Origin: Pasteurella multocida
GTDB lineage: Bacteria > Pseudomonadota > Gammaproteobacteria > Enterobacterales > Pasteurellaceae
Reading direction: 5' to 3'
Length of the DNA: 32,000 nucleotides
Assembly (NCBI RefSeq): GCF_900187275.1
Contig: NZ_LT906458.1
Coordinates: forward strand, 1,650,001 to 1,682,000
The notes beneath the pieces were generated by a model. That model saw nothing but the letters and a program-made list of their open reading frames with translations, ran no database searches and was not told where the DNA came from. Of this stretch, positions 7,675 to 28,702 are shown one piece after another. The position numbers and the translations under genes were made by a program. The first letter of the stretch is position 1. Each line of letters opens with the position of its first letter.

Positions 7675-9015
7675 TTATTTGGTTAAACGTTGATTAAGCA
7701 ACCACATAATCGCTTCAGGACTGTTAAACACCGCATCCCACGTGTTATGTGGATTGTTATTCACAATGCCATTATCTCCGGCTTGTTGCATCGTAAATTC
7801 AGTATATTTCACCTTGTCTGACTTCACTTCATCTTTCAAAATCGCATAATTGATGCGCGAACCTGCAACCGGCGAAACCTTATCTTCGATACTGTGGAAA
7901 AACCAAATTGGGGTATTTTTCAATGCCGATAAATGTTGTACGGACGCATTACCCTCTATCCATTCAAGCGTATTAGCCTCACGTCCACTCATTAATAACG
8001 CTCCCGCAAAAAAGTGCGGTCGTTTTTGTAATAAATATAATCCCCCTTCTGCCCCACGCGAGAGCCCAATAACATAGATCCGCTGTGTATCAATATTTGG
8101 GTGGCTAGCAATCACATCATCTAACAGCTTGAAAAGGAGTTGGTGACGATTGTCGGTTTGCCAATGGATACCGGTCTTATCGAAAGCATCAAAAACCGCA
8201 TCGTACTGAGGTGCCAAAACAAAACCGTCCTCATAAAGTAATGTGGCAATCGCACCTTTACTAGATAATAAATGTGCTAAATTATCTTTTCCTACCTGTC
8301 CAGAACCATGTAAAAATAAGGTTAATGGGTATTTTTTCCCGCTATCGACCGCGGGTTGATAAAAACGATATAAAAGTTGATTATCTTGCTGTGTATGCCA
8401 AACCCGATGCGCTGAGAAGTGATCTAGATAAGCGATGTTGATCTTTTCTTGCACTGCCGGTTGCTTAATTTCACTCGGCATCAGGGTTGTGCCATTGGTC
8501 AACTTTAACAAACCGGTTTGTTTAATACTGTATATTAATTTGTCACCATAAAACTCCGGCACACGATTTGCCTGCACCTTTTCGACTTCAATCATTTGCC
8601 CCGTTTTATCTTTTGCCTTAAATTTCATTGCCTGATTATTTTCCACTTTCAAAGCATAAAAATCGGCATTTTTATCACGTTCATCGAGTTCAAGGATCAC
8701 AAATTTTCCTGCTTGTGGGCGATGTGTTCGACTTGGTTGATTATTAACATAAGCCTTCAAGAGTGTTCTTGGTTCACTCGTGGTTTGCTCAAGTGCGGTC
8801 TGAATTTGATAAAGTTGACGTAGATCGGTGCCCGCCAAAATATTCGCCTCATATTCCAATGCAATCCCTGTAATCTTCGCCCCTTTTTCAGTGACATCAG
8901 CCAATAATGTTGCTTGGATCGCTTGTGGTGGCTTTGCTACATCTGGTATTTGTGTCGTTGCCATACTGACGAATGGAAAACTGACACAAGCTAAGATCAA
9001 AATTTGTCTTAACAT
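7675..9015 (-). CDS. Secreted two-domain alpha/beta hydrolase (esterase/peptidase-like); substrate unknown
   Basis: 446 aa. The N-terminal signal peptide is MLRQILILACVSFPFVSMA. An uncharacterised region of about 200 aa follows. The C-terminal alpha/beta-hydrolase fold has LFLHGSGQVGKDN (oxyanion region), nucleophile elbow GLSRG, and later SIEDKV and PHNTW as candidate Asp and His. RBS AGGGAGAG lies 5 nt before the ATG. Confidence 0.7.
   Translation of the reverse strand: MLRQILILACVSFPFVSMATTQIPDVAKPPQAIQATLLADVTEKGAKITGIALEYEANILAGTDLRQLYQIQTALEQTTSEPRTLLKAYVNNQPSRTHRPQAGKFVILELDERDKNADFYALKVENNQAMKFKAKDKTGQMIEVEKVQANRVPEFYGDKLIYSIKQTGLLKLTNGTTLMPSEIKQPAVQEKINIAYLDHFSAHRVWHTQQDNQLLYRFYQPAVDSGKKYPLTLFLHGSGQVGKDNLAHLLSSKGAIATLLYEDGFVLAPQYDAVFDAFDKTGIHWQTDNRHQLLFKLLDDVIASHPNIDTQRIYVIGLSRGAEGGLYLLQKRPHFFAGALLMSGREANTLEWIEGNASVQHLSALKNTPIWFFHSIEDKVSPVAGSRINYAILKDEVKSDKVKYTEFTMQQAGDNGIVNNNPHNTWDAVFNSPEAIMWLLNQRLTK
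8012..8020 (+). repeat. Uptake signal sequence
   Basis: Exact AAGTGCGGT. Confidence 0.8.
8791..8799 (+). repeat. Uptake signal sequence
   Basis: Exact AAGTGCGGT. Confidence 0.8.
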
Positions 9016-9079: not shown

Positions 9080-10546
9080 TTAGAGTTTTTTACTCTGTAA
9101 ATTGACATAAAGCAGAATTCCCGCCAACACACCGAGCGGTAACACCAAGTCTGTAATCGAACCATCATTGCCCCAAACTAAGTTCGCCAAAATCACTGAG
9201 CTACCACCAATTGCCCATGCGATTGTCGTTGGTACAGACCAAACAATCATTTGTTTCTTCACATCATTAATGCCCATCATGCGGTTCACGACCCAGAACA
9301 AGCTGTCATTAAAATAACCGAAGAACAAGGAGCCCATAGTCGCAGCCTGTGCCGCGAGTAACATATTCACCCCCGGAATCTGTGCTAGAATTGGCGCAGA
9401 AATCGAAGCCGCAGTGATCATAGCTACCGTACCTGAGCCCTGAATAAAGCGTACTAATGTTGAAACAATAAACGGAATCAAGATAGGTGAAATAGGTAAG
9501 GCAGCAACTTGTTCTGCCAATTCTTTACCCGCTCCACTATCACGTAATACCGCACCGAGCGCACCACCAGCACCCGTTACTAATAAAATAATGCCCGCCG
9601 TTTTTACCCCTTCTTCTAAATGCAGTGCTGTCGTGGTTTTATCGGCTTTAGGCAATAATGTGTACACAGCGACTAACACACTGATTGCAAGAGCAATCAT
9701 CGGATGACCAATAAAGTTAAACACTTGGTATAGGGTGTTTTGTGCAAGTTCAGGAGTGTTTTTAGCCAGTAAACCTAAAATGGCTTTAATGAAAATAAGC
9801 GCAATCGGTAAAACAATCGGTAATAATGATAAACCTAAACTTGGTAAGTTTTTCTTCTCACGGCTTTCAATATAATCATCATACTTTTGTTTTAATTCTT
9901 CTTGACTAAACACTTCCTGATTAAAGGTTGGATACTTTTTGTCTAACCATTTAGCATACAGCACCATCCCAACTACAGGTAAAACGGCCAACGACATCCC
10001 GACTAATAACATTGCCCCAATATCAACATTAAATAAGCCGGCTACACCTAATGGACCGGGTGTTGGAGGAACAGTATGGTGCGTAACAACTAAGCCACCT
10101 GCTAATGCTACCCCTAAAGTCAATAAAGAACGTTTCCCATTTTTAGCTAACGCTTTTGCTACTGGATACAAAATCACAAAGGCTGAATCCACAAAGATTG
10201 GAATACTCACAATATAGCCAGTAATAGCCAATGCCCATTCTTCCTTCTTCTTGCCTAAAAACTTAATAAAGCTATAAGCCATTTTCTCTGCGGCACCCGA
10301 AACCTCAAGGATACTTCCCATCATGACACCGAGTCCAATTACAATACCAATCCCCCCTAACGTGCCTCCAAAGCCTTTGGTAATTGCACCCAGTGTTTGG
10401 TCAACATTCATCCCACCAATAAGCCCTGCTATCGCTGCCGCAATTAACATGGCAATAAAAGCATGAACGCGCGTTCTTAACACTAAAAAGACGAGCACAA
10501 AAACGGCCACTAATAAGCCGATTATTGGAATAGGTAATCCAAACAT
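9080..10546 (-). CDS. GntP-family acid-sugar permease (probable tetronate transporter)
   Basis: 488-aa polytopic protein with a typical gluconate:H+ symporter-family sequence. A GGGAGG RBS precedes it, and the start is 11 nt after the denD stop. Confidence 0.85.
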   Translation of the reverse strand: MFGLPIPIIGLLVAVFVLVFLVLRTRVHAFIAMLIAAAIAGLIGGMNVDQTLGAITKGFGGTLGGIGIVIGLGVMMGSILEVSGAAEKMAYSFIKFLGKKKEEWALAITGYIVSIPIFVDSAFVILYPVAKALAKNGKRSLLTLGVALAGGLVVTHHTVPPTPGPLGVAGLFNVDIGAMLLVGMSLAVLPVVGMVLYAKWLDKKYPTFNQEVFSQEELKQKYDDYIESREKKNLPSLGLSLLPIVLPIALIFIKAILGLLAKNTPELAQNTLYQVFNFIGHPMIALAISVLVAVYTLLPKADKTTTALHLEEGVKTAGIILLVTGAGGALGAVLRDSGAGKELAEQVAALPISPILIPFIVSTLVRFIQGSGTVAMITAASISAPILAQIPGVNMLLAAQAATMGSLFFGYFNDSLFWVVNRMMGINDVKKQMIVWSVPTTIAWAIGGSSVILANLVWGNDGSITDLVLPLGVLAGILLYVNLQSKKL

Positions 10547-10557
10547 AACGCCTCCCG

Positions 10558-11505
10558 TTACATATCATATTGAATGAATTGTTGAATCACATCCGCAAAA
10601 CGTTGATCGGCATGGAAACCTAAACCAAGTGCGTGTGAACAGTTAATTGCCGCAGGCCAACTGGCAACAATATTGTTAATCCCTTCGTCAAATGCCACAT
10701 TGACATACTGTAAAATTGCATCCCCTTTTACCTTAGCTAACTCAGACAACATGTTTTCCACAGTCACAGTAAAGCCAGGTAAATTGATGACATGCCAATC
10801 TCTTGCAGGAAGAGAAGGTAGCTGAAGTGCGTGAATAAAATTATTCACGACTGTATTTGGACTTGATAGCCATAATTTTAATTGCACAGACACCGGGCAA
10901 ATCGCCATTTCGTTATGCAACGGCTCACGAATAATACTGCTCACAAATGAAGAAGCGGCTTTATTCGGTTTACCCGGACGAATACAAATGGTCGGCAAGC
11001 GAAGCACGATGCCGTCCACAAACCCTTTGCGGCTATAATCATTAATCAATAATTCACACATGGCTTTTTGTGTACCATAGGTGGATTGTGGTGTGACGGC
11101 AGTATGATCCTCAATAACGTCAGGTAGCTTTCCTCCATAGACAGCTAATGAGCTGGTAAAAATAAAACGAATCTTTGGATTACGACGGCGGCAGCATTCG
11201 AGTAAATGACGCGTCGCTAAGAAATTAATCTCATAGCCTAAATCAGGATCTTGTTCCGCATGGCTACTGACAATCGCCGCTAAATGGAAAATAGCGTCTG
11301 TCTGCTGATCAATAATCTCATCCAATCCTTCTGGCTGGCGTAAGTCCATTTCTATACAACGTACTCTGGGATCATAATTGGGTGCGATAGGCTTAATCAC
11401 ATCAATTAAAATCAGCTCATCGACTTGTACATGTGGATGGGATAACAAGGTTTTTGCTAAACGCTGTCCAAGGAATCCTTGCCCGCCCGTAATGATAATT
11501 TTCAT
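10558..11505 (-). CDS. denD: NAD-dependent epimerase/dehydratase-family dehydrogenase; probable D-erythronate 2-dehydrogenase
   Basis: 315 aa with the extended-SDR N-terminus MKIIITGGQGFLGQRL. Its position in an ltnD/otnK/otnC/otnI cluster matches the characterised DenD context. A GAGGAG RBS precedes it. Confidence 0.75.
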   Translation of the reverse strand: MKIIITGGQGFLGQRLAKTLLSHPHVQVDELILIDVIKPIAPNYDPRVRCIEMDLRQPEGLDEIIDQQTDAIFHLAAIVSSHAEQDPDLGYEINFLATRHLLECCRRRNPKIRFIFTSSLAVYGGKLPDVIEDHTAVTPQSTYGTQKAMCELLINDYSRKGFVDGIVLRLPTICIRPGKPNKAASSFVSSIIREPLHNEMAICPVSVQLKLWLSSPNTVVNNFIHALQLPSLPARDWHVINLPGFTVTVENMLSELAKVKGDAILQYVNVAFDEGINNIVASWPAAINCSHALGLGFHADQRFADVIQQFIQYDM

Positions 11506-11525
11506 CTTTTTCTCCTCAAAAATTC

Positions 11526-11534
11526 ACCGCACTT
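11526..11534 (-). repeat. Uptake signal sequence
   Basis: Exact ACCGCACTT in the denD leader. Confidence 0.8.
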
Positions 11535-11573
11535 TTGTTCACATTTCATGCAGTTTAAGGGTTATTATGTAAG

Positions 11574-11604
11574 AAATGCCCTACCCACTGACAACAGGGC
11601 ATTT
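11574..11604 (-). terminator. Intra-operon hairpin (possible partial terminator or attenuator) between the membrane hydrolase gene and denD
   Basis: 9-bp stem aaatgccct (11574-11582) / agggcattt (11596-11604) with a 13-nt loop. On the minus strand the sequence after it is tttctt. The large loop and weak T-run lower confidence. Confidence 0.4.
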
Positions 11605-11643
11605 TTCGAATGAATAACAACACGACTGTGACGAAATAAAGGT

Positions 11644-13443
11644 TTAGGCTAAGAATCGCCCAATGACTTGACCTCCGACTAACACCCAAGTCATTAACAG
11701 AGAGGTGAAAAATACCCCTAAATAAATATAGCCTGTTTTTAAATAGCACCAGTGATTGATCACGGTGAAGACAATAAACTGTGGAATAATAACGGCTAAC
11801 ATCATCATCCAACGTCCACCAAATTGTGGCAGTCCCACCACATCAAATCCCGGACCGATTTGCATAAAACCAGGAACAAAATGGAATAACCATAAAATAA
11901 TTAAACCACCAGTAGCAAAAAGTGCGGTTTTGAAACTCCAGATCAACAATGTTGCTGTAAACGAACTCGCCACTTTTTGTTTCATTTGGACTGACACGAT
12001 CAAACCGTTGAACACGAAGAAAAAGACCAAAATAGGTAACCAATACACGATAAATAAATTAAACCGCTCTACCGTTAATGGCTTCAATAATGGCCATAAG
12101 AAACGTAACTCAACATGGAAATATTGATAAATCAGACTGACAAGGAAATATAAACCGGCAAATAACAATAAGCTGAGTAATAAATAACGTCCAATCAGTT
12201 GCGCCGTTGTCAAGGAAGCAGATTGGCTCAACACACCAAACTCTGCCCAACAAAACTGTGCTTTTCTTTGCCACAAGCCAAATAAAAGACTACCGACAAG
12301 CCCACTCACAACGAGCCATAAAATAATGCCATTTCCCATTTCAAGTGGCATAAAACTCAATTTCGCGGCAATCGGTTCATTCGCACCGCCCCACTGGGTA
12401 AATAGCGGATAGAGCAGTAATGTCAGCACAATATTAATCAGCGTAAAGCCCCACCATTGTTTGCTCGAAATTGCTGTCTTTTCTGTGACGGCTTGATTCA
12501 TCACGCCAAAATAGGTCGTTTTTAAAAGTCCGCTGGCAAAACATAATGTGGCAAGCAAAGCACAAGCTAAAGCAAATAACCCTGTAAGTTCTTTATACCA
12601 ATAGGTTTGTTGGTCAGGATCAATCCAATCCGCACCTTTTTCGCCATGTTGCAATGCTTGATTAAACCAAAGAATGGCTTCTTTATTACTCTGGGAAGCA
12701 ATCATCACCCCAAGATGGGTACCATCGACCATTGCCGCACGACGTGCAGAACCGGTGTTAAAGTCACCATAGGTATGATCCCACTGCAAAGTTTCATTTT
12801 CGCCTAACCCAAATGCTTTCAGGCGGTTAGGATGATGAATCAAACTTTTTACAGGGAAGGTTCTTTCACGATAGCCACCGATTTCTTCGTACAATCCTTG
12901 TGTCAATAAGTAGTTATTCAATGTCATCTCACCACCATTGCTACTTAATCCATTGACAGCTTTGTGATCTGGATTGAGTTTTGCCACGCGAATTGCATTT
13001 AACGCGCCAGTAGAGTGACCAAAGAGACCTAACCGTGTGTTATCTACAAACGGCAACGTTTTTAAATATTGATAACCATTATTCGCTCCACTCATATTTT
13101 TATTTGAAGCGGGTAACTTAGTAGAATAGCCATGTCCAAAATGATCGATCGCTAGCACCACAAAACCGCGCTTAGCCAGCTCCAACGCACCAAATGTACT
13201 GGTTGCTTCTTTATCACTTTGATAGCCATGCAATGCCAAAAGTCCTGGCTTCGGTGTGTCTGCCGTAGCAGAAACTGGACGATATAGCTTCGCGGCCATC
13301 GGTTGCATTTCTTCTGTCATAAAGCTCACATGGCTCACCTCAATTCGACCAAAATCGCGATCTATTGCCGAAGCAAGATAGGCACCTAAAAACGTGAACA
13401 AAAGAAACACACTTCCCCAAAAATAAGGTTTACTTGAATGCAT
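11644..13443 (-). CDS. Membrane protein: N-terminal anchor, alpha/beta serine hydrolase domain and C-terminal 8-TM module (599 aa); function unknown
   Basis: The start was moved to the ATG at 13443 (MHSSKPYFWG...), preceded by GAGGAGAG and lying 1 nt after the cyclase-family stop codon. TM0 is FWGSVFLLFTFLGAYLASA. The hydrolase motifs are LLALHGYQSDKE (HG oxyanion) and GLFGHSTGA (GxSxG; Ser codon at 13012-13014). About eight hydrophobic helices run from about residue 285 to the C-terminus. Confidence 0.7.
   Translation of the reverse strand: MHSSKPYFWGSVFLLFTFLGAYLASAIDRDFGRIEVSHVSFMTEEMQPMAAKLYRPVSATADTPKPGLLALHGYQSDKEATSTFGALELAKRGFVVLAIDHFGHGYSTKLPASNKNMSGANNGYQYLKTLPFVDNTRLGLFGHSTGALNAIRVAKLNPDHKAVNGLSSNGGEMTLNNYLLTQGLYEEIGGYRERTFPVKSLIHHPNRLKAFGLGENETLQWDHTYGDFNTGSARRAAMVDGTHLGVMIASQSNKEAILWFNQALQHGEKGADWIDPDQQTYWYKELTGLFALACALLATLCFASGLLKTTYFGVMNQAVTEKTAISSKQWWGFTLINIVLTLLLYPLFTQWGGANEPIAAKLSFMPLEMGNGIILWLVVSGLVGSLLFGLWQRKAQFCWAEFGVLSQSASLTTAQLIGRYLLLSLLLFAGLYFLVSLIYQYFHVELRFLWPLLKPLTVERFNLFIVYWLPILVFFFVFNGLIVSVQMKQKVASSFTATLLIWSFKTALFATGGLIILWLFHFVPGFMQIGPGFDVVGLPQFGGRWMMMLAVIIPQFIVFTVINHWCYLKTGYIYLGVFFTSLLMTWVLVGGQVIGRFLA
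11920..11928 (+). repeat. Uptake signal sequence
   Basis: Exact AAGTGCGGT inside the membrane hydrolase gene. Confidence 0.8.
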
Positions 13444-13444
13444 C

Positions 13445-14119
13445 TTATCTCTCCTCTGCAAGCACAGTCACTTGTGCGCTATCAATTCCTTTGACTAATA
13501 AAGGCATCGCTAATACCCGCATTAACGTTTCACTGTTCACTTGAGATAATTTCATATCTTCAATAATGCAAATAAAGGCTGGCTTATACATCCCAAGCAT
13601 CACTTGATGTGCTTCCACACCATGTTCGGGATTTGCCGGCGATGCCAAGGAAATAAAATCAAAACCAATCGCTTTTAAATGACTCGCATGATCAATCAAA
13701 TATTTCGCTGCTTGGATACTGACAGCGCCGCCATTTGCAGCATATTGTTGCGGGTCGGTTTGGCGTAACTGCTCTAACCCCGTACGAATGAAAAGAGAGT
13801 CCGCTTGTTGCATTTGTGTCAAATAAGGCGCCAGATCTTCAGGTTCAATTAATGTACCGGGTGCTTTGGGAATATCAACTAACAACGGTTTTTCATAAAT
13901 AAATGTACTCAATGGCAGTTCTGAAATAGATAAGCCATTTGGATTGAAATGTTTTGGCGCATCAAAATGTGTACCAAAATGATTAAATAAATGAATAATG
14001 GCACTGTTATAAACATCCCCTTCGGCAATGCTCGTGCTACTTTCGAAAGTCAGTGTCGGCTCCCCGGGAAACCCGGGATCCTTGATATCTAACGGATAAG
14101 ACAGTAATTGATAATTCAT
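13445..14119 (-). CDS. Cyclase-family protein (kynurenine formamidase / isatin hydrolase-like metal-dependent hydrolase)
   Basis: 224 aa with the family signature HxGTHxDxPxH, present as HFGTHFDAPKH. An AGGAG RBS lies 7 nt before the ATG, and the gap after the otnI stop is 15 nt. Confidence 0.75.
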   Translation of the reverse strand: MNYQLLSYPLDIKDPGFPGEPTLTFESSTSIAEGDVYNSAIIHLFNHFGTHFDAPKHFNPNGLSISELPLSTFIYEKPLLVDIPKAPGTLIEPEDLAPYLTQMQQADSLFIRTGLEQLRQTDPQQYAANGGAVSIQAAKYLIDHASHLKAIGFDFISLASPANPEHGVEAHQVMLGMYKPAFICIIEDMKLSQVNSETLMRVLAMPLLVKGIDSAQVTVLAEER

Positions 14120-14134: not shown

Positions 14135-14917
14135 TTACGCGTCTTTATAAGGCGCAAACCAATCTAATCCGACGACAGTTTCGATTTTTGGCTTATATTC
14201 ACAGCCAATAAAGCCGCGATAGCCCATTTGATCTAACTTATCAAATAAATAAGTGTAGTTAATTTCTCCTTCATTCGGCTCATGACGATCTGGTACCGAG
14301 GCAATTTGAATATGTGCCACTTTGTCTTTCAACAAATCTGTCAGCTGTGACAACTTGCCATCGACATTTTGGGCATGAAAATAATCAAGCTGGATAAAGA
14401 CATTATCCCGATCAACTAAATTCACAATGTCTAATGTATCAAATTGACTTTTTAGCAAATAATTTGGTTTCACCTGTGGACTTAAGGCTTCGAGTAGAAT
14501 CTTAATACCATGCGGTTTGAATTTTTCTGCCGCGTAACGAAGATTCTGCACAAAGGTACGTTTATACAGCTCGCGATCCGCACCTTCTGGTACAACCGCT
14601 GCCATAATATGAACACTCGGGCAATCGAGTGCTAGCGCATATTCCAAGGCTAAATCAATATCACGATGACTGTCTTGTTCGCGTCCCGGAATCGCTGACA
14701 CGCCCCACTCCCCTTGTTCAATATTTCCCGCAGCCGTATTAAATAACACTTGCTTCAGCCCATATTGCACCAATTTTTCTTTTAACACTGAGGCGGGATA
14801 GTCATAAGGCCATAAATATTCCACATATTTAAAGCCCGCTTTCGACGCCGCTTCAAAACGATCTAAAAAAGGCACTTCAGTAAACATCATGGTTAAATTT
14901 GCAGCAAATTTTGGCAT
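14135..14917 (-). CDS. otnI: 2-oxo-tetronate isomerase (hydroxypyruvate isomerase family)
   Basis: 260 aa, collinear with E. coli Hyi-type TIM-barrel proteins ([23 protein letters not shown]). The start is 1 nt after the otnC stop. Confidence 0.85.
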
Positions 14918-14918: not shown

Positions 14919-15551
14919 CTATTTTCCCCTCTTTTCGAGATCTTTCACTTCGTCATCGGTCAGATAACGAACTTGTTGGCCTTTTAAGAGGAAATACAAT
15001 TTTGCGGTTTCCTCTAATTCTTCGGTATTGTCCACGGCATCAACCAAATCGGTTCCCGTTACAACCACACCGTGATTGGCCAATAAAAACGCTTTGCTCA
15101 GTAATGCGCGCTCACTCAGTTCACGCGCAATATTCGTATCACCGGGGCGATAATAAGGAATCACCGGAAGCTTGCCGACACGCATCACATAGTAGGGTGT
15201 GAATGCTTTCATCGCATTATCTGGATTGAGCCCCTCTAAACACGAAAGGGCAGTGAGATAAGTTGAATGTAAATGAACAATGGCATGACATGCCGGATTT
15301 TTGTGATACATCGCCAAATGAAAGACAGACTCCTTAGAGGGCTTCTTACCCGATAACAAGTTGCCTTCCATATCCAATACAGAGAGACTGTCCGCCTCTA
15401 AACGCCCCAAAGAAGAGCCCGTTGGCGTGACTAAAATACGTTTCTCATCTAAACGTACAGACAAATTTCCTGCGCCCCCCACACTATAGCCTCGTTCAAA
15501 TAATGAGCGCGCAAGATTCACCATTTCTTTTTTTTGTTCGAGTTCTGTCAT
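14919..15551 (-). CDS. otnC: 3-oxo-tetronate 4-phosphate decarboxylase (class II aldolase/adducin family)
   Basis: 210 aa with a class II aldolase fold sequence ([12 protein letters not shown]). Its ATGA start/stop overlap with otnK indicates translational coupling. Confidence 0.85.
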
Positions 15552-16789
15552 ATCAACATTCCTTGTGCGAAAGCAAAAAAGTCTTCTGTCCCGAAATTCC
15601 CTGATTTCAAAGCAAGATAAATATCTTCATCTAATGCTTTTAACCAAGGCACTCCGGGAGCAATTTGTTTACCGATTTGGAAGCCTGTAAAACCAAGTTG
15701 CTGAACCACAATGCTTGACGTTTCTCCACCCGCAGTAATGAAGTTCACTACCCCAGCGGCTTTCAGTTTTTGCGCGAGCTGTGCAAATGTGTTTTCGATC
15801 GCTTGGCTAGCTTTTTCCACACCAAATTCCGCTTGAATTTGTTTGAGCTTATCGGGTGATACCGTGGCATACACCATAGGCGCCAAATCGTGATCTAAAT
15901 GAGCAATAACCCATTTTGCTAGCACATCGGCATACGCAGGATTTGATAGGCTTTGTTCAACATCCAAATAAAAGTGCGGTGCTTTTTCTGCATATTTCGC
16001 CACTTGTTTATTGGTCATCACAGAACAAGACCCTGACAGCACCACCGTTTTACCTTTTGGTGGCAATAACGCATTGTCGCCATGCTGACCACCACTAGCA
16101 CGCGCCGCCATATAAGCAGCTAATCCCGATCCACCCGTCACCAATTTCAAGTCTGTAATGGCTTCTGCCAAAACAGCTAATTGATCATTATCGACAGAAT
16201 CCACGACTGCATAACGGAAGCCTTGTTGTTGTAAAGTACGAAAACACGATTTCACATAGTCACTGCCTTTCAACAGATCCGCATAGCACACAAGTCCTGT
16301 TTTCCCGAGCGCTTGTTGATCCATCAAGCGCACTAAATTGGCATCTTTCATCGGCGTAATCGGGTGATTTTGCATACCGGATTCATTCAATAGCACCTCA
16401 CCAACAAACAGATAACCATTAAAAATAGTGCGACCATTAACCGGTAAAGCTGGGCAAATAATCGTGAAATCCGCGTTTAACGCATCCAATAATGCATCCG
16501 TCACAGGACCAATATTGCCTTTTGCTGTACTATCAAAGGTGGAACAATATTTAAAATAGAACTGAGTACAGCCCTGTTGTTGTAACCAATGTAGTGCTTG
16601 TAAAGATTGAGCGATGGCTTCATCAACGGGATTAGAACGTGACTTTAAACTGATCACAATCGCATCCACAGGCGCTGTCAACGACTGCTTAGGCACCCCA
16701 TTCATCTGTACGGTAGCAAGCCCATTTTCCACTAGAAAACTGGCAATATCACTCGCACCAGTAAAATCATCTGCAATGACACCTAACAT
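15548..16789 (-). CDS. otnK: 3-oxo-tetronate kinase (DUF1537 four-carbon acid sugar kinase)
   Basis: 413 aa with N-terminus MLGVIADDFTGASD, typical of the DUF1537 kinase family. The start was moved to the ATG at 16789, 7 nt after AAGGAG. The track start is a GTG two codons upstream. Confidence 0.88.
   Translation of the reverse strand: MLGVIADDFTGASDIASFLVENGLATVQMNGVPKQSLTAPVDAIVISLKSRSNPVDEAIAQSLQALHWLQQQGCTQFYFKYCSTFDSTAKGNIGPVTDALLDALNADFTIICPALPVNGRTIFNGYLFVGEVLLNESGMQNHPITPMKDANLVRLMDQQALGKTGLVCYADLLKGSDYVKSCFRTLQQQGFRYAVVDSVDNDQLAVLAEAITDLKLVTGGSGLAAYMAARASGGQHGDNALLPPKGKTVVLSGSCSVMTNKQVAKYAEKAPHFYLDVEQSLSNPAYADVLAKWVIAHLDHDLAPMVYATVSPDKLKQIQAEFGVEKASQAIENTFAQLAQKLKAAGVVNFITAGGETSSIVVQQLGFTGFQIGKQIAPGVPWLKALDEDIYLALKSGNFGTEDFFAFAQGMLI
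15972..15980 (+). repeat. Uptake signal sequence
   Basis: Exact AAGTGCGGT inside otnK. Confidence 0.8.
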
Positions 16790-16791
16790 AA

Positions 16792-17697
16792 TCACGCTCC
16801 TTTTTTCTGTGGTAATTCAATGCCACTAAAAATCTTAATCACCGCACTATCATCTTCTTTGCCATACCCCGCATTGCTGGCTGACGTAAACATATTAAAC
16901 GCCGTGCTTGCTAGCGGTAACGGGAACTTCAAAGATTTTGCAGTATCCGTGACAAGACCTAAATCTTTCACAAAAATATCTACCATAGACAGTGGGGTAT
17001 AGTCGCCCTCTACAACGTGCTTCATACGATTTTCAAACATCCAAGAATTCCCTGCAGCATGAGTCACCACGTCATACATTAAATCGAGTGGAATACCAGC
17101 TCTAGCTGCTAATGCCATGGCTTCTGCACCCGCGGCAATATGTACCCCCGCGAGTAATTGGTGAATAATTTTCACGGTTGCCCCTAAGCCAATTTCTTCA
17201 CCGATGTTATACACTTTACCCGCCACCGCATCTAAGACTGGTTGCAATTTCGTAAAAGCTTGTTGAGAACCAGATGCCATCACGGTCATCTCGCCTGCCG
17301 CCGCTTTTGCTGCCCCTCCAGAAACAGGCGCATCTAACATCACCAACCCTAGCTCTGTTAATTTTTGTGAAATCTGCTGCGCATCTTGTGCAGAAATGGT
17401 AGAAGAGACCATCACCGCAGTACCTGGTTTTAAATGACTTGCCAAGCCTTTCTCGCCAAATAGCACTGTATTCACTTGGCTAGCATTGACAACTAACAAC
17501 AACACCGCATCTAATTCTTGTGCAAAATCCACCGCGCTTTGTGATACGCCTTTTGCTCCCTCGGCTTTAAGTTTCTCCAAGGCAAGCGGGTTCAGATCTG
17601 CACCGTAAGTTGTTAATCCTGCTCGAATACAAGATTGCGCGGCGCCCATTCCCATTGCACCTAAGCCAATCACGGCGACTGAAATATTTTGATTCAT
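16792..17697 (-). CDS. ltnD: L-threonate dehydrogenase (beta-hydroxyacid dehydrogenase family)
   Basis: 301 aa with the Rossmann motif VAVIGLGAMGMG and a 3-hydroxyisobutyrate dehydrogenase-like sequence. The start was moved to the ATG at 17697 (MNQNIS...), 4 nt after GGAGGA. Confidence 0.82.
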   Translation of the reverse strand: MNQNISVAVIGLGAMGMGAAQSCIRAGLTTYGADLNPLALEKLKAEGAKGVSQSAVDFAQELDAVLLLVVNASQVNTVLFGEKGLASHLKPGTAVMVSSTISAQDAQQISQKLTELGLVMLDAPVSGGAAKAAAGEMTVMASGSQQAFTKLQPVLDAVAGKVYNIGEEIGLGATVKIIHQLLAGVHIAAGAEAMALAARAGIPLDLMYDVVTHAAGNSWMFENRMKHVVEGDYTPLSMVDIFVKDLGLVTDTAKSLKFPLPLASTAFNMFTSASNAGYGKEDDSAVIKIFSGIELPQKKGA

Positions 17698-17781
17698 AAG
17701 TTCCTCCACTCAGATTTTAACGGGTGTTCGACTAACACTATATTGCCTCCTTTTATAAAATAAATCTGCGATCGAGATCTC

Positions 17782-17911: not shown

Positions 17912-18673
17912 ATGTTAATCCCCGCAGAACGTCAAAAGAAAATCCTTAATTTAATTCATCAACAAGGTATTGTCCGCATTACGAATCTGGTCGAATTAAT
18001 GGGTGTTTCCCACATGACCATTCGTCGCGATATTCAAAAATTGGAAGAAAAGGGCAAAGTCGTTTCTGTTTCGGGGGGAGTACAGCTATTAGAAAGGTTA
18101 ATTTCCGAGCCTACTCGCGATGATAAATCGCTGTTATTTCATCAACAAAAATCAGCGATTGGTTTAGTCGCCGCAAATCTGATTCCTGCCAATGCAACGA
18201 TCTATTTAGATGCAGGCACCACCACTTTAGAAATCGCCAAACAGATTACAGATCGTGATGACTTATTGGTAATCACCAATGATTTTGGCATTGTGGATTA
18301 CTTAATTAGCAATGGACGTTGTGACTTAATTCATACTGGGGGGCGAGTGTGTAAAGAAAATCGTTCTTCTGTGGGGGAATTATCTGCCCAATTTTTGCGG
18401 AACATTTCTATTGATATCGCCTTTATTTCGACTTCCTCATGGAATTTACAAGGATTGACGACACCAGATGAAAATAAATTACCGGTTAAACGTGCCATTG
18501 TACAAGCTAGCAGACGGAATATCCTTGTCACAGACTCCTCAAAATACGGCAAAGTCGCGACGTTTTTACTCTATGCTCTGGATACATTAGATCAAATTAT
18601 TTGCGATAAAGCTTTGCTCATCAACGCGCAAGAAAAGATTAAAGAAATGGATATTGAACTTTTGTTAGTGTAA
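17912..18673 (+). CDS. DeoR-family transcriptional regulator of the tetronate operon
   Basis: 253 aa with an N-terminal wHTH (ITNLVELMGVSHMTIRRDIQKLEEKG) and a C-terminal DeoR sugar-phosphate sensor domain. It is divergent from ltnD, and a TATAAT lies at 17873-17878. Confidence 0.88.
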   Translation: MLIPAERQKKILNLIHQQGIVRITNLVELMGVSHMTIRRDIQKLEEKGKVVSVSGGVQLLERLISEPTRDDKSLLFHQQKSAIGLVAANLIPANATIYLDAGTTTLEIAKQITDRDDLLVITNDFGIVDYLISNGRCDLIHTGGRVCKENRSSVGELSAQFLRNISIDIAFISTSSWNLQGLTTPDENKLPVKRAIVQASRRNILVTDSSKYGKVATFLLYALDTLDQIICDKALLINAQEKIKEMDIELLLV

Positions 18674-20885: not shown

Positions 20886-22070
20886 TTATCTTTCAAAATA
20901 AACTTTTTTGAGAGCTAACTCCAATCCTCTAAATTCTGCTAAACCTTTTAGCCGACCAATTGCTGAATAACCTGGATTTGTTTTTTTATTCAAATCATCA
21001 AGCATTTGATGACCATGATCAGGACGCATTGGAATTAAACGACCATTTCCATTAGCTTTTCGTCTGTATTCTTCCGTTAAGAGAGCTTTGACAACATTAA
21101 ACATATCCACATCGCCTTCTAAATGTGCCGCTTCGTGAAAACTCAGTGGATTTTCTTCACGACAAGTAGAACGTAAATGTGCAAAGTAAATACGATCAGA
21201 GAATTGTTCCGTCATTTTCACTAAGTCATTATCTGAACGAACTCCATAAGATCCCGTACACATTGTAAAACCATTCGCCGCTAATGGTTGAGTTTTGACA
21301 AACCACTGCATATCCTCAATTGTCGAAACAATACGTGGGAGACCTAAAATTGGACGAGGAGGATCATCAGGATGAATTGCCATTTTAATCCCCACTTCCT
21401 CTGCAACAGGAATAATCTCATTTAAGAAATACGCCAAATGCGTACGAAATTTCTCTGGCGTGATATTTTGATAACGATCTAGCTGCCCTTGAAATTCACT
21501 TAAAGTATAACCTTCTTCCGCGCCAGGCAAGCCCGCAATAATATTATTCGTCAATTGTTGAATATCCTGCTTACTCATTTTTTCAAAATAGGTTTTTGCT
21601 TGCGAGCACTCTTCAGCAGAATAACTTTGCTCTGCATTTGGGCGTTTTAAAATATATAATTCAAAGGCAGCAAAGGCGATATGGTCGAATCGTAAAGCTT
21701 TTGAACCATCTGGCATTTGGTATGCCAAATCTGTCCGAGTCCAATCTAATACAGGCATAAAATTATAACACACCGTATCAATACCACATTTGGCAAGATG
21801 ACGTAGCGTCTGTTTATAATTTTCGATCCATTGTTGATATTGCCCTGTTTGTGTTTTAATTTCTTCATGAACAGGCACACTCTCCACGACTGACCAAACC
21901 AAACCAGCTTTTTCAATATCTGCTTTACGCTTCTCAATCTCTTCCACTGACCAAATTTGCCCATTTGGAATATGGTGAAGCGCAGTAACGATTCCTGTTG
22001 CACCTGCTTGACGAATGTCTGCTAATGAAACCGGATCTTGGGGGCCATACCAACGCCATGTTTGTTCCAT
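20886..22070 (-). CDS. uxuA: Mannonate dehydratase
   Basis: 394 aa, collinear with E. coli UxuA from [10 protein letters not shown] to the C-terminus. The start was moved to the ATG at 22070, preceded by GGAGA. Confidence 0.96.
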
Positions 22071-22527
22071 AAAATTCTCCATTTAAGATTATTTGGCCTG
22101 TAAATAATGTTCACTCATCCATCGACATTGATACTTTTCTTTCGCTACCTTTTTAGGGAGAGTTTACTTTTATCAGTTTTTCTAACTATTTTATTGATTA
22201 TGATTTATAAGATTTATTGATGATATATTCTGGGTACATTTCATATTAATACAATAATCCTTAAATTATTCTTAACAGAGTTATATATGATGTAATATGA
22301 AAATAGCTAATTACTTTCCAGAGGCTTATATATCCATTAAATGGAAATCTTAATAACTTAATTGGTACTGTGTCACTTAAACACATCCTATTTAAGTTCA
22401 TCATAAATAAAACAATCAATATTAGTTATTGAAAAAGCAGTAACGATAAATTCATTATTTACTAGACCGTACTAGATTAACGTAGTAAATATTATTCTTT
22501 TGTAAAACGTTCTTTGATGATTTAAGT

Positions 22528-23274
22528 TCATATTCCAACAACAACAGGATTCCGATTAAATAAATAACCATCAAAATCAGGATCATCAAGATCAGATAAT
22601 TCAAATAATTTCTGTTTTACATTTTCAAGATGCTGCCACATGGCTTTTTTAGCAAGCGCAGGATCTTTTCGTTGGATACTATTGAGAATTGCCTCATGAT
22701 CTTTTAACCATAAGCGACGATAATGATGCACTTTAATATGCGAATGAAGCCCTTTCCACATTGGATTCGAACGATATTTCCATAGATCTTTTTGCATCTG
22801 AATTAAAACTTCATTCTGCGTTATTTCAGCAATCGCAGTATGAAATTCTTCATCTTCAGAATAATCATCATTACCACCTTGCTCTAACGTAACATATTCA
22901 CGCTTTAAAATTTCTTTCAATCGTACAATATCATTACGGTTCGCTTGAATTGCTGCAAATTCGGCAATACTGCTTTCTAATAATTGTCGAGCTTGCAACA
23001 ATTCAAATGGTCCTACATCTAAATAATCAAAACTATCATTACTGCTTGGTAAATTAATGATATAGACACCAGAACCCTTTCTAACAGAAATTAAGTTTTC
23101 TAGCTCCAACATAATTAATGCTTCTCTAACGACAGTACGGCTGACATCAAAACGTTCTGCAATATCACGTTCTGGAGGTAATCGCTCGCCAATTGTATAG
23201 ATTCCTTTGCGGAGCTCATCTTTCAATAATTCACCAATTTTCTTATAAGATCGTAATGAATAGTTTTCACTCAT
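22528..23274 (-). CDS. GntR/FadR-family regulator, UxuR/ExuR-like (hexuronate regulon repressor)
   Basis: 248 aa with an N-terminal GntR wHTH (LPPERDIAERFDVSRTVVREAL) and a FadR-type C-terminal domain. It sits within a hexuronate gene block. Confidence 0.85.
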   Translation of the reverse strand: MSENYSLRSYKKIGELLKDELRKGIYTIGERLPPERDIAERFDVSRTVVREALIMLELENLISVRKGSGVYIINLPSSNDSFDYLDVGPFELLQARQLLESSIAEFAAIQANRNDIVRLKEILKREYVTLEQGGNDDYSEDEEFHTAIAEITQNEVLIQMQKDLWKYRSNPMWKGLHSHIKVHHYRRLWLKDHEAILNSIQRKDPALAKKAMWQHLENVKQKLFELSDLDDPDFDGYLFNRNPVVVGI

Positions 23275-23321
23275 AATTAAAAAGCCTCAAATATTCCAAC
23301 AATAACAGTACCAATCTAAAT

Positions 23322-23340
23322 ATTGGTATAACAAATTATA
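23322..23340 (-). promoter_or_regulatory. Regulator promoter -10 element abutting a UxuR/ExuR-type operator (autoregulation)
   Basis: On the minus strand, TATAAT (23340-23335) is followed directly by ttgttataccaat. On the plus strand this reads ATTGGTATAACAAA at 23322-23335, matching 12 of 14 positions of ATTGGTATACCAAT. Confidence 0.45.
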
Positions 23341-23356
23341 ATTTAATATAACATAC

Positions 23357-24326
23357 CTACTGCAGTTTACGGATCTCTTCTACAATTTTATATGTGTCAG
23401 GATCTGTTTTTTGTAATTCTTCATACATTGGGATAACCGCAGCTTTGAATGTCGACTTATCTACTTCTACAAATGTTGAGCCTTGCTTAATCGCAGATTC
23501 TCTTTCTTTATTTTCAGAAGCAACCCAAAGCTCTTGCATTTTAGCAGTAGCCTCATCAGCAGCTTGTTTCAATGCTCGTTGTTCATTTTCACTCAAAGCA
23601 TCCCATATTTTTGTTGAGATGACTAACACATCTGGCACCATTGTGTGTTCATCTAAACTAAAAAGATACTTCACTATGACGGCTCAATGTATAAGATGGA
23701 ATATTATTTTCAGCAGCATCAACTACTCCTTGCTGAAGCGCAGTATAAAGTTCACCATAGGCTAATGGTGTTGGGTTTCCCCCCAAGAATTGCACCATAT
23801 TTACGGCTGTCGGACTAGGCTGGACTCGTACTTTCAAACCTTTTAAATCCTCAGGTGTTTTAATTGGTTTTGATGTATAAAAACTTCTTGCGCCAGCATC
23901 TAAGTAAGCTAAACCAATAAAGCCATTTTCTTTTGAAGACTGTAAAATATTTTGTCCAATCGGACTTTCCATCACTTTATAATAATGTTCCTTACTATTA
24001 AATAAATAAGGCAAATTATATACGCCATATGGCTTACTAAACGCTTCTAGCTCAGCGGCATTCGATTTTGCTAATGCTAAAGCTCCTTTTTGTACAAGTT
24101 CCAAAGATTCACGTTGTGAACCAAGTTGAGCATCCGGGTAGACTCGGATTTTTAGTGCTCCATCTGTTAATGTTTCAGTACGCTTAGCCATGTATTGCAA
24201 TACTTCATGAACTGGATGGGATCTATTTTGATTATGGCTTAATTTTAACGTAGTGCTCGCTAACGCATTAAAAGACAATCCTAGAACAACTGTCGTAATC
24301 ACTGTATTTAATAAGAATCTTTTCAT
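23357..24326 (-). pseudogene. dctP: TRAP transporter substrate-binding protein DctP, disrupted by a frameshift near 23658-23674
   Basis: Two overlapping ORFs (24413-23658 and 23674-23357) together reconstruct one DctP-family protein. The upstream frame ends ...NNIPSYTLSRHSEVSF*. The downstream frame continues (V)KYLFSLDEHTMVPDVLVIS.... The signal peptide is MKRFLLNTVITTVVLGLSFNALA, with the likely start at 24326 (6 nt after AAGGGG) or 24332. Confidence 0.75.
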
Positions 24327-24373
24327 CTTCATCCCCTTTATCATTAAATTCACATCAGACCAAAAAATAATAT

Positions 24374-24385
24374 TTGGCACACCAA
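24374..24385. promoter_or_regulatory. Second UxuR/ExuR-type operator core in the dctP leader
   Basis: TTGG-caca-CCAA, about 45 nt upstream of the dctP ATG. It has the same TTGG-N4-CCAA geometry as the perfect palindrome at 24458-24473. Confidence 0.35.
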
Positions 24386-24430
24386 TATTTGTATTTTTTC
24401 GCATTTCAGTCAAAACAATTTATTAAAAAA

Positions 24431-24446
24431 TGAGATAAAGATCACA
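24431..24446. promoter_or_regulatory. CRP site (dctP side)
   Basis: TGAGA-taaaga-TCACA matches 9 of 10 core positions. A TGAAAT -10 candidate on the minus strand at 24408-24403 fits class II spacing. Confidence 0.5.
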
Positions 24447-24457
24447 AAAAAACACAA

Positions 24458-24473
24458 AATTGGAATTCCAATT
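24458..24473. promoter_or_regulatory. UxuR/ExuR-type operator, 16-bp perfect palindrome
   Basis: AATTGGAATTCCAATT, a perfect inverted repeat with TTGG-N4-CCAA geometry like the enterobacterial UxuR/ExuR box AAATTGGTATACCAATTT. It is central in the dctP/dctQ divergent region. Confidence 0.6.
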
Positions 24474-24480
24474 ATAAAAA

Positions 24481-24496
24481 TGTGACAATGATCTCA
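24481..24496. promoter_or_regulatory. CRP site (dctQ side)
   Basis: TGTGA-caatga-TCTCA matches 9 of 10 core positions. A CATTAT/TATAGA -10 candidate at 24513-24521 gives class II spacing of about 40 nt. Confidence 0.5.
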
Positions 24497-24555
24497 TTTA
24501 AAATGAGAAAATCATTATAGAATTCGTTTCATGTTATAGACTCAAGGGGTTTTTT

Positions 24556-25044
24556 ATGGAAAGATTTTTAAAATTGGTGAACCAAATATTAATCTATTTC
24601 TTAGTATCGCTTTCCTCCGTTCTCGTAGCCTGTGTCATTTGGCAAGTTATCTCTCGCTATATTCTCAATGCAGCAAGTATTGTGACTGATGAACTAGCTC
24701 GTTTTCTCTTTATGTGGGTAGGTCTTATCGGGGCAGCTTATGCAACGGGGCTAAAAAGACACCTTGCGATTGACTTATTACTCATGAAAAGTAAAGGGAA
24801 AAATAAGACTATTCTTGAAATCTTCATTTCTTGTGTGATGCTCTTTTTTGCAGGATTTGTTCTCGTTTATGGTGGCGCTAATCTTGCATGGGATACGCAT
24901 ATATCTGGACAAATTTCGCCATCACTTGGTATAGACATGGGAATTATTTACCTTTGTTTACCTGTTTCTGGAGCAATTATGGTGTTCTATATTCTTATAG
25001 ACCTCGTTTCAAAATTTGATAAAACGGGTCAACAACTTAATTAA
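24556..25044 (+). CDS. dctQ: TRAP transporter small permease DctQ
   Basis: 162 aa with four hydrophobic helices. It lies immediately upstream of dctM, and an AAGGGG RBS precedes it. Confidence 0.88.
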   Translation: MERFLKLVNQILIYFLVSLSSVLVACVIWQVISRYILNAASIVTDELARFLFMWVGLIGAAYATGLKRHLAIDLLLMKSKGKNKTILEIFISCVMLFFAGFVLVYGGANLAWDTHISGQISPSLGIDMGIIYLCLPVSGAIMVFYILIDLVSKFDKTGQQLN

Positions 25045-25058
25045 GGAGCAATTTACTT

Positions 25059-26369: not shown

Positions 26370-26418
26370 TTAAATCGTTTAGGTAAACATCGAATACTAT
26401 TACTAATAAGGAAAAATT

Positions 26419-27264: not shown

Positions 27265-27289
27265 TAAGTTATTTTAAGGAGGAAATAAG

Positions 27290-28693: not shown

Positions 28694-28702
28694 GGAACAT
28701 CC

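Follow-up and report, generated by a model that had tools for sequence, protein, structure and literature searches.

Enzymes such as Lnt, LtaS, EptA and the AT3-SGNH proteins (OafA) combine a polytopic base with an extracytoplasmic catalytic domain, and PlaF is a single-pass membrane-anchored alpha/beta-hydrolase whose substrate is membrane phospholipid. The product of the kmt1 gene of Pasteurella multocida, which we examined in a 32,000-nucleotide stretch of the genome (hereafter, the window), resembles these enzymes in part. With Lnt, LtaS, EptA and OafA it would share the general design of an outside catalytic domain mounted rigidly on a multi-helix module, but the membrane modules show no similarity in sequence or fold, the catalytic fold is another, and those enzymes serve envelope biosynthesis whereas kmt1 has a catabolic context. 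Like PlaF, Kmt1 has an N-terminal helix followed by an alpha/beta-hydrolase, but PlaF lacks the C-terminal polytopic module. The Kmt1 fold, the HG motif and the G-x-S-x-G motif also occur in soluble or secreted carboxylesterases (the MHETase-like MHT043-5, 9pjb; PET46, 8b4u; E. coli YcjY, 5xb6; YjfP, 9bd4; cutinases and PETases), none of which combines an N-terminal anchor with an eight-helix module as Kmt1 does; the signature HGYQ[SN]DK[ED] is specific to the kmt1 family. Uptake proteins of the GlpF or GntP type share with the Kmt1 family an operon position beside glpK-glpD or beside the kinases and dehydrogenases of tetronate catabolism, but the proteins are not homologous, the catalytic esterase is found on Kmt1 only, and transport by Kmt1 is putative.

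The ORF is kmt1, the gene used routinely as a species-PCR marker for P. multocida, because both classical KMT1 primers match it exactly. The KMT1T7 and KMT1SP6 sequences were borne out by exact matches in the window at 12391-12410 (minus strand) and 11954-11973 (plus strand). The literature gives the length of the PCR product as 460 bp. The protein is nearly identical to Pm70 Kmt1 (Q9CL81/AAK03445.1): it shares a 90% cluster with Q9CL81, annotated "Kmt1", has 99% identity to the representative of that cluster, and its exact sequence is on record in 488 contigs. By sequence identity the gene is not confined to P. multocida, with homologues of 83-84% identity in P. oralis and Histophilus somni. 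The initial annotation could name no family for this protein; this did not hold for the gene as a whole, which carries a name as a marker, but it did for the membrane part, which belongs to no recognisable family. In the literature that we found, kmt1 serves purely as a marker and no function is reported for it, nor did we find functional data for kmt1 or for PM1360-PM1362, the locus tags that we guessed.

As first described, the gene is an uninterrupted ORF of 599 codons; we add that it is encoded on the minus strand, from an ATG at 13443-13441 to a stop at 11646-11644. An in-frame TTG at 13461, upstream of the ATG, would yield an alternative product of 605 aa. We preferred the ATG because it is preceded by a GAGGAG Shine-Dalgarno sequence, begins 1 nt past the stop of the upstream cyclase-family gene and coincides in the alignment with the start position of the homologues. 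Relatives were encoded in 80 loci from many phyla, nearly all aligning over query residues ~20-595, and the ORFs called in 81 relative-bearing loci were mostly of 550-700 aa. Such full-span relatives across many phyla establish kmt1 as a single gene and rule out that two genes had been fused by a sequencing error. The G+C content over 11-14 kb (0.41) equals that of the neighbours, in agreement with the composition judged by eye in the initial annotation, and the perfect uptake signal sequence (USS) noted there is indeed present within the gene (Table 1), one of 12 in the window against 0.2 expected.

Table 1. Features of the kmt1 locus, with positions counted from the first nucleotide of the window.
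Feature	Position	Strand	Remarks
Secreted EstA-Ig-like/PHB-depolymerase-like esterase	7675..9015	minus	Pfam; signal-peptide-like N-terminus; final operon gene
GntP-family permease	9080..10546	minus	Pfam/NCBIfam-level profile matches
denD, D-erythronate dehydrogenase	10558..11505	minus	NCBIfam NF043036 (ErythonDh), 477 bits (cut-off 325)
kmt1 CDS	11644..13443	minus	599 aa plus stop; from ORF list
Family-specific eight-helix membrane module, residues 281-599	11647..12603	minus	Hydropathy; model pLDDT 92.4
USS, perfect Hin-type AAGTGCGGT	11920..11928	plus	Within kmt1
KMT1T7/KMT1SP6 species-PCR amplicon	11954..12410		457 bp, unstranded; inside membrane module; both primers exact
Alpha/beta-hydrolase (serine carboxylesterase) domain, residues 29-280	12604..13359	minus	Predicted periplasmic; Pfam, Foldseek, profile against PDB
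His243 codon, probable catalytic histidine	12715..12717	minus	Invariant; just after predicted strand 234-239
Glu187 codon, probable catalytic acid	12883..12885	minus	Invariant; just after predicted strand 178-183, canonical acid position
Ser144 codon, nucleophile of G-H-S-T-G	13012..13014	minus	Invariant; follows predicted strand 133-143
His72-Gly73, oxyanion-hole HG motif	13225..13230	minus	Opens family signature HGYQ[SN]DK[ED]; invariant in 37 sequences
TM1, N-terminal signal-anchor helix, residues 6-28	13360..13428	minus	Hydropathy 9-27; model helix 6-28, pLDDT 94-98
GAGGAG Shine-Dalgarno of kmt1	13451..13456	minus	Within 3' end of cyclase-family gene
Cyclase-family (PF04199) metal-hydrolase gene	13445..14119	minus	Lacks a signal peptide; translational coupling to kmt1
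otnI	14135-14917	minus	NCBIfam OxoTetrIsom 386 (cut-off 325)
otnC	14919-15551	minus	NCBIfam OxoTetrPhDc 303 (cut-off 250)
otnK	15548-16795	minus	NCBIfam OxoTetrKin 617 (cut-off 350)
ltnD	16792-17709	minus	NCBIfam ThreonDh 486 (cut-off 350)
Divergent DeoR-family regulator	17912..18673	plus	

The strongest clue to the role of kmt1, overlooked in the initial annotation, is its operon position. The gene lies within an operon for the catabolism of the four-carbon sugar acids L-threonate and D-erythronate (tetronates), whose ltnD, otnK, otnC, otnI and denD genes are contiguous and, like kmt1, all on the minus strand; a terminator-like hairpin (7666-7634) follows the secreted esterase gene. The cluster is kept around kmt1 in all nine other Pasteurellaceae loci and in Lautropia, and the nine Pasteurellaceae loci also include the secreted esterase; H. 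influenzae is not known to carry more than the core otn cluster. Together with the neighbour-like composition and the translational coupling to the gene upstream, this conserved position argues, as first proposed, against a recent insertion. The cyclase-family gene adjoins kmt1 homologues in 12 loci.

Catabolic neighbours of related types accompany kmt1 homologues elsewhere. In Actinomyces the order is GntR regulator, DUF1537 kinase, LtnD-like dehydrogenase, SGL lactonase and kmt1 homologue, and in Treponema-type loci it is GarR-like dehydrogenase, kmt1 homologue, cyclase and DUF1537 kinase. Five loci from Chloroflexota or metagenomes carry a SorC regulator divergent from a kmt1 homologue, GlpK and a GlpD-like protein; the GlpK of locus L005, the only such locus scored, reached 772 bits (cut-off 498). 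No protein but the kmt1 homologue has four or more membrane helices in the operons of Actinomyces and of the Treponema-type loci and in most of the glpK-glpD operons. It holds the slot that a permease or GlpF usually takes. The operons of the Pasteurellaceae and Lautropia also encode a GntP permease, so import by Kmt1 would not be strictly needed in these organisms. Among the more distant loci, roughly 60 in number, the majority showed no conserved catabolic neighbours.

The hydrolase domain of Kmt1 is, by profile and fold, a member of the alpha/beta-hydrolase superfamily of the serine esterase type. Pfam scores exceeded the cut-offs for Hydrolase_4 (33.5, cut-off 27), FrsA-like (28.6, cut-off 22) and AXE1 (25.7, cut-off 21), all generic alpha/beta-hydrolase families, and Pfam and NCBIfam searches with the whole protein gave hits of this generic kind only. 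The FrsA equivalog (NCBIfam NF003460) was rejected, scoring 32 bits where 477 are required. A Foldseek search of the PDB with the whole model retrieved PETases, cutinases and YjfP (E about 1e-7, probability 1.00), and a profile search of the PDB found 9pjb as the best match (9e-18); in searches with the single sequence and with the profile, only hydrolase residues of about 38-170 aligned to PDB sequences. Both motifs pointed out in the initial annotation proved invariant in their key positions over 37 homologues with identities down to 35%. The HG motif in LLALHGYQ (residues 67-74; H72 and G73 invariant) directly follows modelled strand 3 (65-71), and the nucleophile elbow GHSTG (residues 142-146; H143, S144 and G146 invariant) follows predicted strand 5, as a G-x-S-x-G motif. 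Counting from the start codon at 13443 places the Ser144 codon where it had been assigned. Glu187 and His243 probably complete the triad with Ser144, judging from their positions in the model. Between predicted strands 7 and 8 lies a family-specific segment with invariant R207, W221, Y225 and R234. The esterase looks active, as suggested by motifs that are invariant down to 35% identity, Pfam scores above the cut-offs and matches to carboxylesterases.

Hydropathy and the AlphaFold2 model agreed on the N-terminal hydrophobic anchor that had been read from the sequence. TM1 is likely uncleaved, because the A-S-A site that follows it in P. multocida is not conserved among the homologues; a cleavable signal peptide was rejected on this ground. 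The K+R counts over 37 homologues (15.5 in the predicted cytoplasmic loops versus 6.0 in the short outer loops) and the signal-anchor-like N-terminus support the earlier suggestion that the catalytic domain probably faces the periplasm, outside the cytoplasm. A cytoplasmic hydrolase, or one with a non-catalytic role as a ligand-binding or sensor domain, strikes us as very improbable. The topology is, to be sure, a prediction, and the charge bias of P. multocida Kmt1 itself is weak, with a lone Lys before TM1. Yet the positive-inside bias is clear across the family, the catalytic motifs are invariant, and the cytoplasmic loops are short and poorly conserved, with no output domain.

The rest of the protein, as the initial annotation had proposed, consists of about eight hydrophobic helices running to the C-terminus. 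Hydropathy placed them at residues 289-307, 331-349, 372-390, 420-438, 465-483, 499-526, 545-563 and 573-591, and AlphaFold2 models also contained eight. Because the hydrolase dominates the Foldseek results of the whole model, we modelled residues 276-599 separately. The model was confident (pLDDT 92) and retrieved no significant match among PDB or viral structures. Similarly, Pfam searches with the whole protein, the C-terminal 324 residues and 16 diverse members (E up to 10) returned no relatives of the module, NCBIfam gave no match covering the membrane part of the whole protein, and single-sequence and profile searches found no module relatives among PDB sequences. Comparisons with transporter, channel and intramembrane-enzyme families (MFS, GntP, MIP, CPBP/Rce1, rhomboid, AT3, MBOAT and others) gave no profile or fold match, in keeping with the lack of CPBP, rhomboid, MFS or acyltransferase signatures reported previously. 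A viral "CAAX protease self-immunity" protein (TM 0.49, E 2.0) raised CPBP kinship as a candidate, which we rejected because hhalign against the CPBP protein of locus L001 gave a probability of 0.1% and the module contains no invariant Glu or His. An internal duplication of four plus four helices was likewise unsupported (hhalign E 0.084-0.87). Most invariant positions of the module are Gly, Pro or aromatic, with two arginines in loops as well (R447, W450, P451 and R460 all belong to the invariant set), and no polar pathway is obvious. Conservation was higher in the outer loops (0.61-0.70) than in most inner loops (0.41-0.48), with one short inner loop at 0.67. That no known transporter or channel is similar to the module, and that it contains no internal repeat, counts against import.

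Searches with the module profile recovered 689 relatives, and the family, which we located with the full-length alignment and the HGYQ[SN]DK[ED] pattern, ranges over many bacterial phyla and the Thorarchaeota (Asgard archaea). The hydrolase stood in front of the module in nearly all full-length profile matches listed. Apparent stand-alone modules of 340-390 aa were mostly fragments beginning in the hydrolase tail; only two intact genes (P0141 and P0168) genuinely encode the anchor helix and the eight-helix module without the hydrolase, which suggests an independent function for the module. The full-length model (pTM 0.91) depicts hydrolase and module as one rigid body, and this model, the near-universal fusion and the better conserved outer loops suggest that the two parts belong together. 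A periplasmic esterase that does all the chemistry on a module that only tethers, orients or oligomerises it, with products entering through separate transporters, here GntP, would account for the permease in the Pasteurellaceae and Lautropia operons and for a module devoid of transporter hallmarks and of an internal repeat. We consider such a passive role unlikely. One helix suffices for anchoring and TM1 already provides it, several operons encode no other membrane protein, and hydrolase-less versions exist. Moreover, a module of 320 residues with strongly conserved outer loops has been retained from bacteria to Thorarchaeota and, among the roughly 150 profile matches listed, was never exchanged for another anchor, all of which argues for a specific module function.

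The best explanation, to which as a whole we would give slightly less than an even chance, is that Kmt1 is an inner-membrane protein whose esterase faces outward and releases small polyols or hydroxy acids from their esters, and which passes these inward, possibly via its own module. A serine carboxylesterase facing the periplasm (Ser144, HG oxyanion hole), mounted on the eight-helix module behind a signal-anchor, would work on the outer side of the cytoplasmic membrane, cutting ester conjugates of small polyols or polyhydroxy acids (C3-C4), and the released molecule would be delivered to the cell, plausibly through the membrane module of Kmt1. The cytoplasmic cyclase-family hydrolase could then complete the de-esterification or open a lactone, ahead of the dehydrogenase and kinase steps; in Actinomyces, an SGL lactonase takes its place. 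We favor a role in nutrient acquisition because of the synteny, which is compatible with import. What the analysis shows is the architecture, how well the catalytic motifs are conserved, the probable topology, how widely the family occurs and the synteny; we infer the class of substrate, a connection to import and the way in which the three hydrolases share the work.

The same architecture could instead serve a membrane-embedded substrate, as the initial annotation also allowed, a reading that we regard as rather unlikely. The module would bind an outer-leaflet lipid or lipid-linked ester and present it to the hydrolase, a lipase, lysophospholipase or acyltransferase in this scheme; glycerol or another head group set free would then pass to the kinases encoded nearby, unless the gene order is a coincidence. 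Enzymes with lipid substrates are usually built in this way, as a polytopic base that bears a catalytic domain outside the cytoplasm (Lnt, LtaS, EptA, OafA), the conserved module residues are largely aromatic, Gly and Pro in outer loops beside the hydrolase, and a transporter-like signature was not found. Also, the best Pfam match is Hydrolase_4, a family that includes monoacylglycerol lipases, and the glpK-glpD context fits the release of glycerol from acylglycerols. Yet the operons are catabolic, with regulators of the sugar-acid type, rather than loci of envelope biogenesis, and the module has no likeness in sequence or fold to Lnt, LtaS, AT3 or MBOAT. The DUF1537-kinase context would also go unexplained, as we know of no lipid that contains threonate, erythronate or glycerate.

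Carrying the esterase-and-uptake proposal further, we speculate, with rather low confidence, that the Kmt1 family is an unrecognised class of hard-wired esterase-permeases whose substrates in P. multocida and other inhabitants of the mouth and airways are esters and lactones from vitamin C oxidation. In such a protein, with its outward-facing serine esterase fused to a new membrane fold, release of a small polyol or hydroxy acid from an ester and its import would be a single step. Candidate substrates would be 4-O-oxalyl-L-threonate, cyclic oxalyl-threonate and oxalyl-threonolactone. Oxalyl-threonates and oxalyl-threonolactone are the main products of the reaction of dehydroascorbate with H2O2, and esterases split these oxalyl esters to oxalate and L-threonate (PMC6225978). 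The secreted esterase, Kmt1 and the cytoplasmic cyclase-family enzyme would remove such esters stepwise, and the L-threonate so released would supply the adjacent ltnD/otnKCI pathway.

Routine amplification of kmt1 identifies P. multocida, and its placement in a tetronate operon now offers a concrete, testable role for the gene. The family to which it belongs, spread across bacterial phyla and Asgard archaea, couples an esterase to a membrane fold that has no classified relative. If the module is a conduit, Kmt1 would represent a new mode of coupling extracellular hydrolysis to uptake and would add the natural precursors to the upstream end of the known threonate/erythronate pathway.

The single ORF that the initial annotation could place in no named family is the P. 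multocida kmt1 gene. Its product is 99% identical to the representative of a P. multocida 'alpha/beta hydrolase' cluster, is on record as an exact sequence from 488 contigs and shares a 90% cluster with the Pm70 protein Q9CL81, named Kmt1. Furthermore, KMT1T7 and KMT1SP6, the classical primers for P. multocida species PCR, both match exactly within the membrane half of the gene, 457 bp apart. The primer matches and the shared cluster thus identify the unnamed fusion. The product size in the literature is 460 bp. The reports consulted use the gene as a marker only and assign it no function. The PCR literature calls kmt1 species-specific, yet Pasteurella oralis and Histophilus somni have full-length homologues at 83-84% amino-acid identity, and others are found across the Pasteurellaceae at about 70%; the specificity of the PCR must therefore stem from nucleotide divergence at the primer sites. 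The ORF listing includes an alternative in-frame TTG that would add six codons upstream, but the ATG is favored by its GAGGAG Shine-Dalgarno sequence (13451-13456), its position 1 nt past the TAA of the upstream gene and the use of the same start in homologues. The elements originally read from the sequence all hold: the anchor helix, LLALHGYQ (residues 67-74), GHSTG (142-146, with the codon for Ser144 at 13012-13014) and the eight additional helices. So do the neighbor-like composition (G+C of 0.41, as in the flanks) and the perfect Hin-type uptake signal sequence (USS) within the gene (11920-11928); the window carries 12 USS versus 0.2 expected.

The kmt1 gene lies within a nine-gene, co-oriented cluster that ends in a terminator-like hairpin and corresponds to the L-threonate/D-erythronate pathway of Zhang et al. 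(2016), as cited in PMC10580937. The closing esterase carries a signal peptide, an EstA Ig-like N-domain and a weak PHB-depolymerase-like catalytic domain, and brings to three the hydrolases in a single sugar-acid operon. Between kmt1 and denD, a spacer of 138 nt (11506-11643) contains another USS (11526-11534, on the minus strand) and a weak hairpin, GCCCT...AGGGC, with ATTTCTT after it, which may be an attenuator or regulatory point inside the operon. Adjoining this tetronate operon is a second sugar-acid locus, for hexuronate utilization (20886-30301), of lower G+C (0.31-0.37 over 22-30 kb) and encoding uxuA, a GntR/FCD regulator, dctPQM, an SDR, uxaC, a PfkB kinase and KDPG aldolase. A frameshift splits its TRAP transporter gene dctP (23357-24413, minus strand) into a pair of ORFs that overlap and differ in frame, and reflects either a pseudogene or a sequencing error.

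Coordinates of kmt1, its operon and the frameshifted dctP within the window
Feature	Position	Strand	Description
secreted EstA-Ig-like esterase	7675-9015	minus	Pfam
gntP permease	9080-10546	minus	Pfam, NCBIfam
denD	10558-11505	minus	NCBIfam, 477 vs cut-off 325
kmt1	11644-13443	minus	single ORF, 599 aa; ATG at 13443, stop 11646-11644
cyclase-family hydrolase	13445-14119	minus	Pfam PF04199
otnI	14135-14917	minus	NCBIfam, 386 vs cut-off 325
otnC	14919-15551	minus	NCBIfam, 303 vs cut-off 250
otnK	15548-16795	minus	NCBIfam, 617 vs cut-off 350
ltnD	16792-17709	minus	NCBIfam equivalog, 486 vs cut-off 350
DeoR regulator	17912-18673	plus	divergent, upstream of cluster
dctP ORF 2	23357-23674	minus	105 aa, C-terminal part by reading
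dctP ORF 1	23658-24413	minus	251 aa, DctP profile positions 1-193 of 286

A genome scan recovered 366 relatives, and we kept 80 loci for ORF calling, neighbor clustering and BLAST comparison (Pasteurellaceae, Cardiobacterium, Treponema, Chloroflexota, Bacillota, Spirochaetota, Desulfobacterota, Gemmatimonadota, Myxococcota and Thorarchaeota). All nine other Pasteurellaceae loci retain otnK-otnC-otnI, gntP and the genes for the EstA-like esterase and the cyclase alongside kmt1; in eight, the cyclase gene is immediately upstream of kmt1. The Lautropia locus reads ltnD-otnK-otnC-otnI-denD-gntP-cyclase-homologue, and that of Actinomyces reads GntR, DUF1537 kinase, LtnD-like dehydrogenase, SGL lactonase (without a signal peptide) and homologue. 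In a Treponema genome, as in a metagenome contig that matches it, the order is GarR-like dehydrogenase, homologue, cyclase, DUF1537 kinase and RpiR. Five Chloroflexota or metagenome loci (33-37% identity) place a SorC regulator divergent from a homologue-GlpK-GlpD-like series; GlpK of L005, the sole glpK locus scored against NCBIfam, reached 772 versus an equivalog cut-off of 498. Most of the remaining distant loci had no recurrent neighbors. The nearest relatives beyond the Pasteurellaceae (Cardiobacterium, Lautropia, Actinomyces/Schaalia and Treponema) are all from host-associated oral or airway taxa, which suggests gene exchange inside this niche. Adjacent kmt1-like paralogues, inferred from the sequence of the neighbor-cluster representative, occur in some Bacillota, Chloroflexota, Clostridium and Spirochaetia genomes (loci L027, L029, L042, L067 and L083). 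Full-length homologues (32-35% identity) are also present in Thorarchaeota (Asgard archaea) and unclassified archaeal MAGs (loci L031, L032, L036, L037, L043 and L047), three with a small gene, methyltransferase-like by sequence reading, directly upstream.

Residues 28-166 of Kmt1 match the Pfam families Hydrolase_4, FrsA-like and AXE1 above gathering cut-offs; scores against the equivalogs of NCBIfam, FrsA among them, stay far short of the respective cut-offs. Searched against solved structures, a profile of 37 homologues matched carboxylesterases over Kmt1 residues of about 38-170 (best the MHETase-like 9pjb, 9e-18; also PET46 [8b4u], the alpha/beta-hydrolase 7qjm and YcjY), and Foldseek matched the full model to PETases, cutinases and YjfP (E about 1e-7). 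H72, G73, H143, S144, G146, E187 and H243 are invariant in the 37 homologues, down to 35% identity. In the model, E187 and H243 directly follow predicted strands (178-183 and 234-239), in what are predicted to be the canonical acid and histidine positions. Running on from the oxyanion motif is a family signature, HGYQ[SN]DK[ED], where model confidence is lowest (pLDDT below 50, residues 80-82), suggesting a mobile loop beside the active site. The basic residues K52, K78, R207 and R234, also invariant, would suit an anionic substrate.

The eight-helix module (residues 281-599) is modeled confidently within the full protein (pLDDT 91.8, pTM 0.91) and alone (pLDDT 92.4). It matched nothing in Pfam with E allowed up to 10 (16 diverse family members gave only scattered single matches, E 0.024 or weaker), and had no relative in a PDB sequence search, no significant Foldseek hit in PDB (best E 0.44, TM about 0.2) or BFVD, and no internal repeat detectable by profile comparison. 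A viral protein with the annotation 'CAAX protease self-immunity' bore a weak structural likeness to the module, but this failed a profile test. Among 1.84 billion representatives, the module profile found 689 proteins with an E-value of 1e-3 or below, 342 of them with 1e-10 or below. The full-length matches listed are almost all 580-690 aa long and have the module (about 275-600) after an alpha/beta-hydrolase; shorter matches are mostly fragments starting within the hydrolase tail. Two matches (P0141 and P0168) are intact genes for an anchor helix plus the module, with the hydrolase absent. The two metagenomic hydrolase-less genes (L091, 1366-2421; L092, 1153-2250) are intact ORFs away from contig ends.

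Across the 37 homologues, loops predicted to be cytoplasmic (N-in) average 15.5 K+R versus 6.0 in the short outer loops, and outer-loop conservation (0.61-0.70, with the motifs QWGGANEP, PLEMGNG, ELRFLWP..ER and HFVP..GPGFD..GGRW) exceeds that of most inner loops (0.41-0.48), the short loop 564-572 (0.67) excepted. This charge bias and conservation place the predicted position of the hydrolase outside the cytoplasm, adjoining the module's conserved face. An inverted topology or a non-catalytic role is highly improbable. The location beside that face and the pTM of 0.91 argue that the two parts would work as one unit. The interpretation in the initial annotation is supported in part: its topology and domain logic agree with these predictions, but the gene's identity and its tetronate operon had escaped it.

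The genomic contexts share a theme, the breakdown of small polyols and hydroxy acids (C3-C4) that must first be taken from outside, and the Kmt1 family often replaces the permease of its operon: in the operons of Actinomyces and of the Treponema type, and in most of those with glpK-glpD, no protein other than the homologue has as many as four membrane helices. The cytoplasmic partner hydrolase in the closest clade, a cyclase-family protein or SGL lactonase, looks like a non-orthologous replacement. Together with the outward, invariant esterase site and the conserved module in the permease's place, these features make substrate acquisition the role that we favor for Kmt1, though at slightly less than even odds. 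The protein would cleave ester conjugates at the outer face of the membrane, and the freed product would pass inward, possibly via Kmt1's own module, and undergo a second hydrolysis in the cytoplasm. Weighing against import by Kmt1 is a module without transporter-like features. That Kmt1 is an enzyme acting on lipid substrates, of Lnt, LtaS or OafA design, is rather unlikely. The Pasteurellaceae and Lautropia operons, moreover, already encode GntP, another point against import by Kmt1; we doubt, somewhat more strongly, that Kmt1 is a periplasmic esterase on a passive anchor and dependent on GntP. Under substrate acquisition, hypothetical candidates for the P. multocida operon are oxalyl esters and lactones of L-threonate, which arise from dehydroascorbate and H2O2 and which esterases convert to oxalate and threonate (PMC6225978). 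In an architecture not previously characterized, the Kmt1 family combines a serine esterase of ordinary type with a membrane module that is unclassified and widely distributed.
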